From: Pseudidiomarina andamanensis
GTDB lineage: Bacteria; Pseudomonadota; Gammaproteobacteria; Enterobacterales; Alteromonadaceae
Direction: 5' to 3'
Length of the DNA stretch: 32,000 bases
Assembly (NCBI RefSeq): GCF_009734345.1
Contig: NZ_CP032551.1
Location: 420,001 to 452,000 of the forward strand
A model generated the notes under the pieces. It was not told the origin of the DNA. It was given only the letters and a program-made list of their open reading frames with translations, and searched no databases. This document shows, in pieces, positions 6,825 to 30,902 of the stretch; the stretch's first letter is position 1; each line of letters opens with the position of its first letter. The translations under genes were made by a program, and so were the position numbers.

Positions 6825-7226
6825 TTAAATGAGAAAGTCTTCTAAAGATTTACCGGAATCGACAGCTGCTTTTAATGCTTTAGGCATGCGACCTTGTCCG
6901 GTCCAAGTTACGCGGTTACCATCGTTATCGGTAATTTCGTATTTTGGTGGTTTTGGCGTACGTTTGGTTTTTACTTTTGCTGTGACTGAAGGCTCACCAA
7001 CTAATTCGGCTAAATCAATTCCAGCTTCATCAATAAAGCGTTTTACTTCTTCGATTTTTCGCTGTTTTTCTACTTCAAGCTTTTTAAGCTCGGCCTCTTC
7101 TTCTTTCCGCTCTTCAATAACTTTATTTAATTTTTCGCGTACTTCTTCTAGTTCAGTGACAGATAGTTCCTTTACTGCTGCCTTTAAACGTCGTCCATGG
7201 TTTAAGATTTTTAAAAACTCGCTCAT
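6825..7226 (-). CDS. hns: H-NS family nucleoid-associated DNA-binding protein
   Basis: 133 aa. N-terminal coiled coil rich in E/K. The C-terminal TWTGQGRMPK motif is the H-NS DNA-binding signature. A very AT-rich 117-bp region lies upstream. Confidence 0.9.
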   Translation of the reverse strand: MSEFLKILNHGRRLKAAVKELSVTELEEVREKLNKVIEERKEEEAELKKLEVEKQRKIEEVKRFIDEAGIDLAELVGEPSVTAKVKTKRTPKPPKYEITDNDGNRVTWTGQGRMPKALKAAVDSGKSLEDFLI

Positions 7227-20106: not shown

Positions 20107-20150
20107 TTTTGCTTGCTTGTCATGGTTGAGAGCGTTAAGCTTAAAACAAG

Positions 20151-20166
20151 TTGACGTTAACGTAAA
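20151..20166. promoter_or_regulatory. Candidate LiuR (MerR-type) operator, overlapping a putative liuR promoter
   Basis: Imperfect 16-bp palindrome TTGACGTTAACGTAAA, 45 nt upstream of the liuR ATG. On the minus strand TTTACG (-35-like, 20161-20166) is followed 17 nt later by TAAGCT (-10-like, 20138-20143). The assignment to LiuR is inferred from position and family habit. Confidence 0.55.
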
Positions 20167-20180
20167 GGTAAGAAAAGCCG

Positions 20181-20350
20181 AAAAGCGTTATTCGTTATTC
20201 GTTATTCGTTATTCGTTACTGGTTATTCGTTCGCTCAGCTCGCTCAATGGTTATTTCGTATAAAATCGGAAGTAGCGCGATGCGATAGTTTGAAAGCTAG
20301 ACGTCATTGTATTCTCGAATAACGAATAACGAATAACGAATAACGTTTTT
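20181..20350. repeat. Heptamer-armed palindromic element, copy 1 (6 left units / 4 right units, 86-bp core)
   Basis: Left side: AAAAGCG (20181-20187), then TTATTCG x4, TTACTGG, TTATTCG (20188-20229). Core: 20230-20315. Right side: CGAATAA x4 (20316-20343), then CGTTTTT. Confidence 0.9.
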
Positions 20351-20370
20351 GGGTCTTCAAGGGAGTATTT

Positions 20371-22409: not shown

Positions 22410-23297
22410 TTAATTTGCGCTTTTGGTTGCAGAACTTTCGCGATAGTACTGCGGTGATATACCCATCGTTTTCTTAAACAGTCGCGAAAAATAATACGGG
22501 TCATCGAAACCGAGTTGTTGACTGATTTGACGAATTGAATCGGTTGAAGCATCTAACAACTGACAGGCTATTTTAACCCGAATTTGATTAAAGTAACGCA
22601 TCGGGCTAGTACCAGTGAATTGTTTGAATTTTTTGCTGAAATGAAAGCGCGATAACCCAGCAAAATCAGCAAAATCGTCTAGGCTTAAGTCGCGATGCGA
22701 GTTGTCGTACATAAAGCGTTCGAGTGCCGGTAAATCAAAGCCTTGTGGCGCCTGCATGGTTGCCGTTAAGCGCGGTAATTCAGCAATAATTCGCTGCAGT
22801 AAACTGGCGGCGACCACCGCCGCGGCAAACTGATGACGTTGGGTTTGCAAATTGAGTAGGTCGGTAACCACTGGAATAAGTTGTCGCCAGCGAGCTAGCG
22901 TTAATACCGGTTGCTGGTCGGTTAATTCAAGAAATTCAGGGCATGCCGCTGCTGCGGAACCTTGAAAGTGTGCCCAGTAAATGCTCCAGGGCTGTTCGGC
23001 GTGCGCTGCATAAGCGTGAGCCTGCCCAGCTGGTAATAGCAATAATTGTCCAGCACGGAGCGTGCCGCTGGCCGTCTCGGTTCGATACCAGCCGCTACCG
23101 CGATGGCAAAATATGAGTAGGTAATCGGTGTGTTGCTGGCGTTCTACTTGGTGCCCTTGGGCATCGACATAATGTCCGTATGCAAGCGGATATAAATGTT
23201 TCGTCAGTGGATGGCGAGCTAGTTGTCGGGTCAATTGTAATGGCAAAACAACGCGTGAACTTCCCGTTGGAAGTGGCCACGATGAAGGTTGGCTCAT
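22410..23297 (-). CDS. AraC-family transcriptional regulator (MmsR-like, divergent from mmsA)
   Basis: C-terminal AraC HTH (SLDDFADFAGLSRFHFSKKFKQFTGTSPMRYFNQIRVKIACQLL...GFDDPYYFSRLFKK) and an N-terminal cupin-like domain. The ATG at 23297 (MSQPSS...) has GGAG 6 nt upstream. The listed start at 23375 is a TTG with no SD and is probably an over-extension. Confidence 0.8.
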   Translation of the reverse strand: MSQPSSWPLPTGSSRVVLPLQLTRQLARHPLTKHLYPLAYGHYVDAQGHQVERQQHTDYLLIFCHRGSGWYRTETASGTLRAGQLLLLPAGQAHAYAAHAEQPWSIYWAHFQGSAAAACPEFLELTDQQPVLTLARWRQLIPVVTDLLNLQTQRHQFAAAVVAASLLQRIIAELPRLTATMQAPQGFDLPALERFMYDNSHRDLSLDDFADFAGLSRFHFSKKFKQFTGTSPMRYFNQIRVKIACQLLDASTDSIRQISQQLGFDDPYYFSRLFKKTMGISPQYYRESSATKSAN

Positions 23298-23325
23298 GGA
23301 AGGCTCCGAGATCGCAATTTTGTCC

Positions 23326-23331
23326 ATTATA
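23326..23331 (-). promoter_or_regulatory. Candidate -10 box (TATAAT) for the AraC-family gene
   Basis: A perfect TATAAT on the minus strand, about 29 nt upstream of the preferred ATG at 23297. A weak -35 (TTTAAC) sits 17 nt upstream. Sequence-only prediction. Confidence 0.3.
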
Positions 23332-23387
23332 GGGGCAAAATCGTCGATGTTAAAGGACTTCGAAAACAACGACAATGAATGAACGGC

Positions 23388-23571
23388 AAAAGCGTTAGTC
23401 GTTATTCGTTATTGGTTATTCGTGAGCGTTGTTTGCTCGTTAACTCTGTATCGAGGTTTGAGCGCTTTTCGATGTGTGAATTTTTGAACCATTTTTGATT
23501 GGTTTTTGTCTTTTTCGAATAACGAATAACGAATAACCAATAACGAATAACGAATAACGAGTAACGAATTC
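23388..23571. repeat. Heptamer-armed palindromic element, copy 2 (4 left / 8 right units, 93-bp core)
   Basis: Left side: AAAAGCG (23388-23394), then TTAGTCG TTATTCG TTATTGG TTATTCG (23395-23422). Right side: CGAATAA x3, CCAATAA, CGAATAA x2, CGAGTAA, CGAATTC (23516-23571). Confidence 0.9.
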
Positions 23572-23589
23572 AATAAAGAGGTTATACAG

Positions 23590-26291: not shown

Positions 26292-27416
26292 ATGGATCCA
26301 GTAGTATTGTTCGACGAGCTTGAAGCAAGTAACGGCAAACGCATTGGTATCATCACCCTAAACTCAGAAAAATCATTGAACGCGTTAAGCTTACCTATGA
26401 TTCAGCTGTTGCAACCACAGCTGCAGCAATGGGCAAACGATGACGCTATTGCCTGCGTATTTATGCAAGGGGCGGGTGAGAAAGCTTTCTGCGCTGGTGG
26501 CGATATTGTGGCCATGTACAAAGCCATGCAAGCGAAGCCAGGCGTGTTGGTTGATGAGGTTGCTGACTTTTTTAGCCAAGAATACCGACTTGATTACGCC
26601 ATTCACACCTTCCCAAAGCCGCTTGTGCTTTGGGGGCACGGCATTGTGATGGGCGGTGGTATGGGCCTCATGAACGGTGCCAGCCATCGTATTGTGACTG
26701 AGCGCTCGTTGTTGGCTATGCCGGAAGTGACGATTGGTTTGTACCCTGATGTTGGCGCGACCCACTTTTTGAATCAAATGCCTGAGGGCTGTGGCCTATT
26801 CTTAGGGCTCACTGGCGCGCACATGAACGCGACAGATGCGCTGTATTTGAAACTGGCGGATCATTTTGTGGCAAGCACCAGTAAAGACGACGTACTCGCA
26901 GGCTTGAAAGACGTGAAGTGGGGCGATACCGCTGCATTGAATCACCAAAAAGTGACTGATGTTCTCAATGGCATTGGCATGCGCGATAGCAATCAGCGTC
27001 CTGCTGGACAAGTGGAAGCCCACCAGCAATTGATTAAAAAGTTGACGCAAGGTGCTGACATCGAAGCCGTTGTTAATGCAATTGTGAATGATACGACCGA
27101 TGACAAATGGCTAGCTCGCGCCCGTCAAACCCTGGCGGCAGGTTGTCCAATGACTGCTCATATTGTGTGGAATCAATTACAACACGGCGCTGATTTGAGT
27201 TTAGCTGACTGCTTCCGTCTTGAATTAACCTTATCGGTTCAATGTGCGATGCGCGGCGATTTCGCAGAGGGTATTCGCGCGCTGTTAATTGATAAGGATA
27301 AGCAGCCGAAGTGGCAGCATGGTTCGGTTGGTGAGGTTTCGGCTGAAGAGGTTGATGGCTTTTTCACGTCGCCATGGGCGGCAGCTGATCACCCACTCGC
27401 AACTTTAGGTAAGTGA
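26292..27416 (+). CDS. 3-hydroxyisobutyryl-CoA hydrolase (long crotonase-family enzyme)
   Basis: 374 aa. GAGEKAFCAGGDIV and AMPEVTIGLYPDVGATHFL motifs, with the C-terminal extension typical of HIBCH rather than a 260-aa hydratase. Strong SD AAGGAGG. Confidence 0.82.
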   Translation: MDPVVLFDELEASNGKRIGIITLNSEKSLNALSLPMIQLLQPQLQQWANDDAIACVFMQGAGEKAFCAGGDIVAMYKAMQAKPGVLVDEVADFFSQEYRLDYAIHTFPKPLVLWGHGIVMGGGMGLMNGASHRIVTERSLLAMPEVTIGLYPDVGATHFLNQMPEGCGLFLGLTGAHMNATDALYLKLADHFVASTSKDDVLAGLKDVKWGDTAALNHQKVTDVLNGIGMRDSNQRPAGQVEAHQQLIKKLTQGADIEAVVNAIVNDTTDDKWLARARQTLAAGCPMTAHIVWNQLQHGADLSLADCFRLELTLSVQCAMRGDFAEGIRALLIDKDKQPKWQHGSVGEVSAEEVDGFFTSPWAAADHPLATLGK

Positions 27417-27418
27417 TA

Positions 27419-27576
27419 AAAAGCGTTGTTCGTTATTCGTGCGTTCGCTTTGCTCACTGTTCGTACGTGCTTCGCACTGTTCGAATAGCGCAGCGGACGA
27501 ATAATGAACAACGAATAACGAACAACGAATAACGAACAACGAATAACGAACAACGAATAACGAGCAACGAATAACG
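27419..27576. repeat. Heptamer-armed palindromic element, copy 3 (2 left / 11 right units, 58-bp core)
   Basis: Left side: AAAAGCG (27419-27425), then TTGTTCG TTATTCG (27426-27439). Right arm at 27498-27574 alternates CGAATAA/CGAACAA (14-nt superperiod), then CGAGG supplies the mmsB SD. Confidence 0.9.
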
Positions 27577-27584
27577 AGGTTCTT

Positions 27585-28478
27585 ATGGCGAATGTTGGAT
27601 TTATTGGGCTTGGCAATATGGGCGGCCCGATGGCTGCAAACCTTTTCAAAGGCGGCCATCAGGTTAAAGTTTTTGATTTAGCAGAAGTAGCATTGCAGGC
27701 AGCGAAAGACGCCGGTTGCAGCGTGGCCGGCTCGGCCAATGAAGCGGCGCAAGGCGTTGATTTCGTGATTACCATGTTACCTGCAGATAAACACGTTGAG
27801 AGTGTTTACTTGGGTGATAATGGCTTGATTCACGAATTACCAAGCAGCACACTCGTGATTGACTGCAGTACGATTAGCGCAGAAACAGCACGTAAGGTTG
27901 GTCAAGCATTAGCAGCGGAAGGTATTTCGTTTATTGATGCACCAGTTTCTGGTGGTGTTGGTGGCGCGAAGGCCGGTACGCTGACCTTTATCTGTGGTGG
28001 TGATACAACCGCAGTTGATCGTGCGCGCGATGTATTGCAACACATGGGCAAAAACATCTTCCGTGCCGGTGATACAGGCGCTGGTCAAGTTGCGAAAATC
28101 TGCAACAATATGTTGCTGTCGGTGTTAATGATTGGTACTTCGGAAGCGTTGCAGTTGGGCATTGCTCATGGTCTTGATCCGAAAGTGCTGTCGGAGATTA
28201 TGTCGAAGAGTTCCGGTAGCAACTGGACTTTAGATGTATATAATCCTTGCCCTGGTGTGATGGATAATGTGCCTTCAAGCAACGGCTACCAAGGTGGCTT
28301 TTTAGTTGACTTGATGAGTAAAGACCTTGGCCTGGCACAGCAAGCGGCGTTAGCTAGCGGTGCGGCGACCCCAATGGGTGGTTTAACTCACAACTTGTAT
28401 CGCAGTTGGTCACAGCTTGGACACGGTCGTGAAGACTTCTCCAGTATCTTTAATTTCGTTAAAGCGAATAAAAAATAA
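27585..28478 (+). CDS. mmsB: 3-hydroxyisobutyrate dehydrogenase
   Basis: 297 aa. NAD-binding VGFIGLGNMGGPMAANL. Family core (DAPVSGGVGGAKAGTLTFICGG, GAGQVAKICNNM). Confidence 0.92.
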   Translation: MANVGFIGLGNMGGPMAANLFKGGHQVKVFDLAEVALQAAKDAGCSVAGSANEAAQGVDFVITMLPADKHVESVYLGDNGLIHELPSSTLVIDCSTISAETARKVGQALAAEGISFIDAPVSGGVGGAKAGTLTFICGGDTTAVDRARDVLQHMGKNIFRAGDTGAGQVAKICNNMLLSVLMIGTSEALQLGIAHGLDPKVLSEIMSKSSGSNWTLDVYNPCPGVMDNVPSSNGYQGGFLVDLMSKDLGLAQQAALASGAATPMGGLTHNLYRSWSQLGHGREDFSSIFNFVKANKK

Positions 28479-30173: not shown

Positions 30174-30801
30174 TAACCAGCGTGTTGCGATTCATCGCGA
30201 TAACGCCGATGGTCAATATCGAGTGATTTTTGCGCACGGCGCCGGTGCTGGGTTACAAAGCGATTTTATGCAATATATCGCGCTGGCATTAGCACTGAAC
30301 GATATTGAAGTGGTTCGCTTTAACTTTCCTTATTGGCAAAAATTTATGGATTCAGGTGTACGTCGACCACCGAATCGAATGTCTGAGCTGGAGCATTGCA
30401 TGCGCACCGTGGCAAGCCAGTTTAATGACGACAAACCATTGTTTTTAATGGGGAAGTCAATGGGCTCTCGCGTTGCGTTTCGACTTGCCGATGAGCTGAA
30501 TTCAAGAGCCGCCATTGCCTTGGGTTTTCCATTTCACCCAGTTGGCAAACCTGAAAAATTGCGACTGGATGACTTAAATAATCACCGCGAACAGAATCTG
30601 ATTATTCAAGGTACACGAGATAACTTTGGCAAGCCTGAGCAGGTGCGCAGTTATCCGTTGCCTGCAAATGTTGCGGTAAAATGGATTGAGGGTGGTGATC
30701 ACAGTCTTGAACCAACGAAGCGCAGTGGCTATACGCGCGAGCAATTGTGGCAAGCGGCAGTAAACGAAGTAACGAAACTAATAAAAAGCGTTGATCGTTA
30801 G
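30166..30801 (+). CDS. alpha/beta-fold hydrolase (COG3571-like small hydrolase)
   Basis: The ATG at 30166 (MSDNQRVAIH...) overlaps the gcvA stop by 8 nt. HGAGAG motif and nucleophile elbow GKSMGS. The listed start at 30046 would lie inside gcvA. Confidence 0.75.
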   Translation: MSDNQRVAIHRDNADGQYRVIFAHGAGAGLQSDFMQYIALALALNDIEVVRFNFPYWQKFMDSGVRRPPNRMSELEHCMRTVASQFNDDKPLFLMGKSMGSRVAFRLADELNSRAAIALGFPFHPVGKPEKLRLDDLNNHREQNLIIQGTRDNFGKPEQVRSYPLPANVAVKWIEGGDHSLEPTKRSGYTREQLWQAAVNEVTKLIKSVDR

Positions 30802-30902
30802 TCGTTATTGGTTATTCGAAACAGATAAAAGTAAGTCATTAGGTTTGAATCTTTGCTCTACGAATAACCAATAACGAAATTCGAATAACGAATAACGCTT
30901 TT
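30784..30902. repeat. Heptamer-armed palindromic element, copy 4 (4 left / 5 right units, 42-bp core)
   Basis: Left side: AAAAGCG (30784-30790), then TTGATCG TTAGTCG TTATTGG TTATTCG (30791-30818). Right side: CGAATAA CCAATAA CGAAATT CGAATAA CGAATAA (30861-30895), then CGCTTTT (30896-30902). Confidence 0.9.

Follow-up and report, generated by a model that had tools for sequence, protein, structure and literature searches.

A palindromic heptad array in front of mmsB in Pseudidiomarina andamanensis as a copy of a dispersed repeat family

The valine/leucine catabolic operon of Pseudidiomarina andamanensis contains mmsB, the gene for 3-hydroxyisobutyrate dehydrogenase, and the spacer that separates mmsB from the preceding 3-hydroxyisobutyryl-CoA hydrolase gene (hibch) is occupied by an inverted repeat, which we call E3. 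Its left arm has two heptads and its right arm 11, the latter ending directly in front of the mmsB ribosome-binding region. Is such an array a device that sets the expression of the gene behind it, or a copy of something more general that came to lie there? We analysed the locus within a window of 32,000 nt (NCBI RefSeq assembly GCF_009734345.1, contig NZ_CP032551.1, positions 420,001 to 452,000 of the forward strand); positions are coordinates of this window, and the sequences used for comparison are labelled L plus a number. A preliminary description of this DNA had suggested that the repeat number is a dial for mmsB. We reach a different answer and assign it a probability of about 0.7: E3 belongs to a modular family of palindromic, non-coding repeats that are dispersed in Pseudidiomarina and related Idiomarinaceae, its effect on mmsB is incidental, and it is no tuning device. 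On the evidence presented here, E3 is best read as a palindromic repeat, either selfish or neutral, that shares the transcript of the operon.

A dispersed family of palindromic heptad repeats

E3 is not alone in the window. A pattern of two consecutive units, with up to two mismatches allowed, matched 33 times, compared with 0.36 times in shuffled sequences (maximum 3), and all matches but one (32/33) fell within four elements, E1 to E4 (Table 1), E3 itself extending over approximately 27417–27579. The four have an A-run/GCG head and inverted heptad arms in common, and two of them end in a CG(C/T)TTTT tail. The AAAAGCG head stands 5′ of the left arm in all four copies and in most copies from metagenomes; its A-run is also found in the element-free spacer of L040. 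All are richer in AT than their surroundings (32–44% GC, window 47%), and all fold into stable structures, with z = −8.1 for E1 (−75.9 kcal/mol), −5.1 for E2, −4.0 for E3 (about −55 kcal/mol) and −6.4 for E4. The cores of E1, E2 and E4 are mutually unrelated and unmatched elsewhere in the sequences compared. No transposase gene is present in the window.

The family extends well beyond this genome. An exact 20-mer from the element end, AAAGCGTTATTCGTTATTCG, matched 14 metagenome loci, which show the head and heptads of the window copies and, after these, inner arms composed of modules that end in TTCG, for example TGCGCTTCGCTGTTCG and TCCGTTCGGCTGCGCCTCACTGTTCG, with the complements (CGAACAGCGAAGCG...) on the opposite side. 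The general plan reads A-run/GCG head, (TTATTCG)n, TTCG-punctuated inner arm, centre, (CGAANNN) inner arm and (CGAATAA)m. The left inner arm of E3, a 44-nt segment of two related blocks that each end in CTGTTCG, had been taken in the preliminary description for a duplication private to the core of this copy. Copies of it were found by blastn in L034, L035, L037, L027 and L024 (88–100% identity, E down to 2e-12), and together with the metagenome copies they identify it as an inner arm conserved throughout the family and not as the product of a local event. A hidden Markov model (HMM) of the half-element matched 27419–27483 with 55 bits (E = 9.5e-16) and gave paired plus/minus matches across the metagenome loci and none in the element-free L040 and L045.

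The genomic contexts of these copies are diverse. They lie directly 3′ of tRNA genes or within tandem-tRNA spacers (L024, L034), separate a stop codon from a canonical terminator (L026, L028, L030), or are found just 5′ of promoter-like sequences (L029, L031/L037, L032) and immediately 5′ of start codons (L025, L035), and some loci of one metagenome assembly hold two to three copies per ~14 kb. The long type-A copies have inner arms in common. The 29-nt arms of the thiolase and mmsA copies of P. marina (E1′ and E2′) are identical, down to the order of the variant heptads, and of the two cores each is the reverse complement of the other, from which we conclude that a single element lies there in two orientations. 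Left inner arms did not pair better with their own partners (mean −36.0 kcal/mol) than with the partners from other copies (−40.1 kcal/mol; permutation p = 0.98), which is why we attribute the complementarity of the arms to shared modules and not to copy-specific compensatory evolution.

At E3, the left outer arm exactly matches the reverse complement of one of the 14-nt blocks in the right array and can pair with that array in five registers, three of which (inverted repeats I2–I4) are 17 nt long and 100% complementary. The units of the right arm are CGAATAA TGAACAA CGAATAA CGAACAA CGAATAA CGAACAA CGAATAA CGAACAA CGAATAA CGAGCAA CGAATAA. Tandem Repeats Finder described the array with a period of 7 (11.6 copies, 81% matches) and with a period of 14 (5.8 copies, 97% matches). 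In the minimum-free-energy fold the left arm pairs with two units, leaving ~47–60 nt of the array unpaired. The preliminary description thus had the anatomy right: the two left and 11 right heptads, the 14-nt higher-order period, the A-rich remainder left single-stranded once about two units have paired, the CGAGG-N5-ATG of mmsB directly 3′ of the array and the unit counts of the four copies (6/4, 4/8, 2/11 and 4/5) all agree with our read-out. The count of 11 comes from one assembly; a short-read Logan contig with an identical MmsB ends inside the array, which agrees with a long 14-nt-periodic tract and leaves its length unconfirmed.

Table 1 Features of E3, its sister copies in the window and the state of the hydrolase–mmsB spacer in relatives.
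Feature	Position	Strand	Context, organism or basis
Hydrolase (hibch) stop codon TGA	27414–27416	+	
E3 left boundary, A-run and GCG head TAAAAAGCG	27417–27425	+	Adjoins hydrolase stop
E3 left outer arm, TTGTTCG and TTATTCG (2 heptads)	27426–27439	+	
E3 left inner arm, TTCG-punctuated modules TGCGTTCGCTTTGCTCACTGTTCG and TACGTGCTTCGCACTGTTCG, family-conserved	27440–27483	+	blastn, half-element HMM
E3 centre and right-inner-arm remnant AATAGCGCAGCGGA, 14 nt	27484–27497	+	Alignment with L042
E3 right outer arm, 11 heptads, CGAATAA/CGAACAA mostly in alternation	27498–27574	+	
Native ribosome-binding region and mmsB start, CGAGG (27575–27579) TTCTT ATG (27585)	27575–27587	+	
Sister copy E1, 6 left / 4 right heptads, unique 84-nt core	20179–20353		Between LiuR-box promoter region and thiolase gene
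Sister copy E2, 4/8 heptads, unique 92-nt core	23386–23569		Between conserved araC–mmsA control region and mmsA ribosome-binding site
Sister copy E4, 4/5 heptads	30784–30902		Between alpha/beta-hydrolase open reading frame and rlmM
Hydrolase–mmsB spacer empty, 31 nt (...gataaaaatgataagaacgaggttgttATG)			Pseudidiomarina sp. WS423 (L040)
Hydrolase–mmsB spacer empty, 13 nt			P. terrestris (L045)
Hydrolase–mmsB spacer with ~100–107-nt palindrome (GATATTA)n...(CTAATAT)n			P. marina (L002), L003, L038/L039, L041
Hydrolase–mmsB spacer with element of CGAATAA type			L044, L042/L043, window

Several other classes of element were considered for E3 and its relatives. Integron attC sites, CRISPR, riboswitches and attenuators were rejected, since cassette genes, a spacer array and a conserved ligand-type core are all lacking. 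An intrinsic terminator was rejected as well: a terminator scan returned no match at the elements, the stem of E3 is not followed by a U-run, and E1 and E2 sit between genes that diverge; L026, L028 and L030 have a canonical terminator after the element, which is therefore not itself the terminator. Nothing in Rfam reached the gathering score; the two plant miRNA-precursor families that appeared below threshold, when it was relaxed, were rejected as chance matches of generic long hairpins. A promoter scan found no sigma-70-like match inside E1–E4, its sole strong match (23353–23326, minus strand) being the promoter of the araC-family gene, outside E2. In the literature search we found no mention of these repeat sequences or of an Idiomarina repeat family, nor any link between REP-associated tyrosine transposases (RAYT; REP, repetitive extragenic palindrome) and Idiomarina, and the palindromic heptad family appears to be undescribed in the searchable literature.

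Empty sites and the recent rearrangement of E3

The gene order around E3 is conserved genus-wide and comprises the liuR operon, thiolase, an EamA transporter, an AraC-family regulator, mmsA, acyl-CoA dehydrogenase, 3-hydroxyisobutyryl-CoA hydrolase, mmsB, a short-chain dehydrogenase/reductase (SDR) gene, a gcvA-like regulator, an alpha/beta-hydrolase and rlmM. The identities of MmsA, acyl-CoA dehydrogenase, the hydrolase, MmsB and SDR were confirmed, and the window MmsB has 96% identity with its counterpart in Pseudidiomarina marina. Within this common frame, presence and absence of the elements are polymorphic at orthologous sites. L040 and L045 lack an element at each of the four sites; at the E4 site L040 has an 8-nt spacer, and in L045 the two genes overlap (abhydrolase end 13206, rlmM start 13203). 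The E1 and E2 sites are empty also in L044, a contig that ends before rlmM and in which the mmsB site alone is filled of the three sites covered. Where the window reads CGAGG TTCTT ATG, the element-free L040 reads ...aacgaggttgttATG, which suggests that the mmsB ribosome-binding region of the window was retained from an element-free ancestral spacer. Since the spacers originally measured only 13–31 nt, an intact native Shine-Dalgarno sequence is what purifying selection would be expected to leave. The comparison of filled with empty sites revealed no target-site duplication.

The asymmetry of E3 turned out to be a recent feature. L042 and L043, metagenome contigs from two assemblies whose MmsB is 97% identical to that of the window, carry the same element at the same site, with one mismatch in 79 nt of the left half. 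They have two left and three right heptads (CGAATAA CGAACAA CGAATAA) and an intact right inner arm, the centre reading ...aatagcgcagcgcacgaacagcgaagcggacgaataacgagcaaagcgaacgcacgaataa..., and the resulting palindrome of 155 nt forms a near-perfect hairpin (−82.7 kcal/mol). About 33 nt of the right inner arm that are present there are missing from the window. Because so close a relative has three right heptads, we take the 11-unit array to have expanded by 14-nt blocks in this lineage only, a change that went along with the loss of the right inner arm; the unit number of E3 is evolutionarily labile. Growth in two-unit blocks and differences in unit number between close relatives, both anticipated in the preliminary description, are thus seen at this very site (3 versus 11 units, 97% match at period 14). 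Of its further proposal that slipped-strand mispairing generates the variation, the slippage-type change in length is supported, and replication slippage is a likely mechanism, alongside unequal exchange. Programmed or high-frequency variation is not supported, because L042 and L043 show no difference along the entire element and the sole other contig with an identical MmsB ends inside the array.

In each half of an element, the GCG head is joined to heptads (TTATTCG and variants) whose number varies and, where the copy is long, to inner modules that likewise end in TTCG. A plausible course of events can be outlined as follows. In an ancestor, one such copy would have come to fill the short hydrolase–mmsB spacer and left the native Shine-Dalgarno sequence untouched. 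In the lineage of the window a rearrangement of the right half presumably followed, with most of its inner arm lost, and a two-heptad block was amplified from ~3 to 11 units, likely by replication slippage or by unequal exchange between tandem units. E3 would be transcribed within the mmsA–mmsB operon, and its RNA is predicted to form a 17–20-bp stem with an inner hairpin just 3′ of the hydrolase stop, followed by an unstructured A-rich tract of 47–60 nt and then the mmsB ribosome-binding site. For mmsB the consequences are probably minor and incidental, in that translational coupling would be lost and the RNA possibly processed at the stem; a nearly neutral element would fit this picture.

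Some observations sit uneasily with it. Three of the four window copies lie in one catabolic cluster, and the same four sites are filled in several lineages, neither of which a purely neutral picture predicts. Moreover, the term insertion is derived solely from the comparison of empty and filled sites, as neither a transposase nor a target-site duplication nor another mobility signature was found. A functional or mechanistically active reading, which we hold to be of low probability, is kept alive by the three copies in one regulon, by an occupancy that persists despite turnover of the subfamilies and by the AT-richness of the elements.

Functional and mechanistic alternatives

Among such readings, co-option at the RNA level is unlikely in our view. 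The stem-loop would then serve RNase III or RNase E as a processing site, or stabilise the 3′ end of the mmsA–acd–hibch part of the message, and the A-rich array would be a standby platform for ribosomes or protein S1 that keeps mmsB translated in spite of the hairpin. All four window copies occupy probably transcribed positions, between promoter region and Shine-Dalgarno sequence or between cistrons, and their folds are far better than those of shuffled sequences (z = −4 to −8). In L042 the hairpin ends ~16 nt before the AUG, and the expansion in the window puts the stem 47–60 nt away from it; (CGAATAA)n arrays also occur 3–24 nt 5′ of open reading frames in several unrelated viral contigs. 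The pairing of the arms speaks against selection on the individual structures, being free of the copy-specific compensatory evolution that would be expected, and the viral arrays show no strand bias relative to genes (leader orientation in ~6–7 of 12 families).

About as unlikely, or slightly more so, is that the palindromes are no passive debris but undergo rewriting in situ through a mechanism dedicated to it; a hairpin-specific transposase or recombinase would be one example, conversion templated by other copies another. This reading arises because the subfamilies alternate at four spacers, the flanks at mmsB are near-identical and hybrid elements exist. In addition to the hydrolase–mmsB spacer, the thiolase, mmsA and rlmM sites show CGAATAA and CTAATAT types alternating between lineages. 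Between the window (CGAATAA) and L041 (CTAATAT), the first 200 bases of mmsB differ at one position and the last 50 bases of the hydrolase gene at three, whereas the entire spacer, from stop codon to ATG, is unrelated. In a weaker variant of this reading, the heptads may be read by a heptad-specific nucleic-acid-binding protein and form a regulon-wide layer of control. Another account of the swap is available from mmsB itself (27585–28478), which is a recombination mosaic in comparison with L041 and L042; mismatches between window and L041 number 1 in nt 1–200, ~14 per 100 nt in nt 201–600 and 0 in nt 601–700. Allelic exchange by homologous recombination suffices to explain the swap of subfamilies at the mmsB spacer.

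The idea from which this analysis started, a repeat-length rheostat or contingency locus in which slipped-strand changes in unit number 5′ of the mmsB ribosome-binding site tune mmsB and SDR relative to mmsA, has become improbable. It can draw on the 3 versus 11 units at the very site, on an array that abuts the mmsB Shine-Dalgarno sequence and is placed in the 5′ leader, and on a real precedent in Haemophilus influenzae, where the 7-bp repeats of hmw1A and hmw2A act as a true expression rheostat with a graded effect and variation within the host (PMC2424069, PMC8262952). As in that system, a variable heptanucleotide array stands between the promoter region and the coding sequence. The hmw repeats are single direct arrays at two paralogous adhesin genes; in E3 the array makes up one of the two arms of a dispersed palindrome, next to a housekeeping gene, and the analogy is functional only. 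Arm lengths vary at all copies of the family, including those after stop codons, before terminators and beside tRNA genes, and just as much where no start codon follows. Close relatives have the site empty or filled with another heptad type, and L042 and L043, from separate assemblies, do not differ in a single position of the element. The presumed target is a housekeeping catabolic gene, not a surface, restriction or virulence gene, and identical arrays flank tRNA and other housekeeping genes. Finally, a modelled series from 0 to 20 units gave unpaired probabilities of 0.30–0.55 for the region from Shine-Dalgarno sequence to AUG without any trend, so this thermodynamic folding model offers no graded effect of unit number on the accessibility of the ribosome-binding site. 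The proposed dial was therefore not borne out, and E3 is better regarded as a copy of the dispersed family.

Least likely of all are DNA-level binding arrays, in which a heptad-reading repressor (as the omega repressor of pSM19035) or nucleation of H-NS would let the inverted arms bridge and silence the liu/mms genes: three copies in control regions of one regulon that persist in several lineages, the two P. marina copies with identical arms, the low GC content of the elements and an H-NS gene in the window are in keeping with it, but the same family sits at tRNA genes and in 3′ regions, close relatives have different heptads at one and the same site (CGAATAA versus CTAATAT), a 7-bp period fails to hold sites on one face of the helix, and no candidate binding protein was identified. 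The H-NS family gene lies at 6825–7226 on the minus strand and is a conceivable binder of AT-rich arrays.

Related repeat systems and further observations

The family of E3 is apparently a new case of a known kind, that of dispersed intergenic palindromic or heptamer repeats, and the nearest described phenomenon is the convergent GGGAATC heptamer arrays of Xanthomonas together with repeats of the REP/BIME type (BIME, bacterial interspersed mosaic element). The Xanthomonas arrays number ~180 per genome with 2–26 units, are mostly intergenic and include 70–75 that form inverted (convergent) pairs close together; their lengths are not conserved between related species, they have no link to surface genes or insertion sequences, and their function and origin are unknown (Rehm et al. 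2015, PLoS One; PMC4692102). The Pseudidiomarina elements resemble them as intergenic heptamer arrays of variable length in nearby inverted pairs. The G-rich unit of Xanthomonas was studied as a former of G-quadruplexes, whereas CGAATAA, CGAACAA and CTAATAT are AT-rich, without G-tracts and unable to form quadruplexes, and the Pseudidiomarina elements add the GCG head, the TTCG-punctuated inner arms and the swapping of subfamilies at the same site. They thus form an AT-rich counterpart to the Xanthomonas arrays.

REP/BIME repeats of enterobacteria and pseudomonads fall into GTAG- and CGTC-tagged superfamilies (Di Nocera et al. 2013, PMC3733652). Like these, the heptad elements are extragenic imperfect palindromes, with mosaic modules in alternating orientation, that lie between cistrons or after genes and differ in presence and copy number between strains; broadly REP/BIME-like are also the unrelated intergenic sites (four window copies, 14 metagenome loci), the stable stem-loop and the presence/absence polymorphism. 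Unlike in REP/BIME, the arms are tandem heptads of variable number and not a single stem of 20–40 nt. An assignment to REP in the strict sense was rejected, as the GTAG/CGTC tag is absent and the ends consist of an A-run and GCG followed by TTATTCG.

The MITEs of bacteria (miniature transposable elements with inverted repeats), such as Correia/NEMIS and ERIC, have been reviewed (PMC10969869, PMC2229807). The heptad elements share with them a size of 100–200 bp, a non-autonomous nature, inverted ends, positions near genes, co-transcription and long hairpins able to affect the processing of mRNA. Correia elements are processed by RNase III. A difference lies in the cores, which in three window copies are unrelated to each other, and a MITE was rejected because no direct target-site duplication was found; the terminal AAAGCG/CGCTTT is inverted, not direct, and so belongs to the palindrome. 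Cyanobacterial short tandemly repeated repetitive (STRR) sequences, of which three heptanucleotides from Calothrix PCC 7601 are cited in PMC4692102, are similar as genome-wide intergenic heptamer arrays with several sequence types per genome; they are mostly solo, with few paired inverted arrays in Nostoc, and both phylum and unit sequences differ.

The chief interest of the family lies in its modular heptad architecture and in the swapping of subfamilies at fixed sites. Modular TTCG-punctuated arms, swapped subfamilies and empty sites in sister species make it a tractable system for studying the origin, expansion and replacement of repeats and their effects on operons. For annotation, heptad arrays beside start codons in Idiomarinaceae need comparative evidence before they are called gene-specific regulators, the striking 2-versus-11 asymmetry of E3 being a recent rearrangement of a common repeat. 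For assembly, such arrays break short-read assemblies.

Around the sister copies, several features deserve mention. The divergent liuR–thiolase region contains a conserved LiuR-type palindrome, gttgacgttaacgtaaag (window 20150–20168; L002 2784–2802; equivalents in L038, L040, L044 and L045), and an E1 element of either subfamily always starts ~12–20 nt to its right, placing E1 probably in the 5′ leader of thiolase. The sigma-70 match near E2 is a near-consensus promoter, TTAACA-16-TATAAT (23326–23353, minus strand), within a TTG-extended open reading frame (22410–23375); given this position, the AraC-family gene probably starts at ~23297, as do its 295-aa orthologues, and the intergenic region would be 23298–23589. 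The left arm of E4 (30784–30801) encodes the last ~five codons and the TAG stop (30799–30801) of the upstream alpha/beta-hydrolase frame.

Composite copies also occur. Hybrid elements combine a TTATTCG left arm with a right arm of CCAACAA/CTAATAA type (L024 699–738, L033 1137–1178), and at L031 14487–14551 (plus strand) a CTAATAT-type arm lies directly outside a CGAATAA-type arm, which suggests arm swapping or nested insertion. The thiolase-site element of L038 (2770–2905) has GATATCC-type heptads and an internal duplication of ~50 nt, with ccgatatcaggaaaacctgaaacatcagatctgatatc present twice.

Solo (CGAATAA)n arrays were found in ~12 unrelated viral contig families of IMG/VR (L004–L023; GC 26–70%), for example at L017 5274–5294, L014 7377–7418 and L005 3044–3085 (reverse complement). 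A role specific to leaders was rejected for them, their orientation to open reading frames being ~50:50. In 6–7 families the arrays end 3–24 nt before the start of an open reading frame, as in L017 (cgaataacgaataacgaataacgaggtgatttaccATG), and among related contigs they range from three to six units 5′ of the same gene. Several of these viral arrays are preceded by GTGAAGC/GCTTCAC heptad hairpins.

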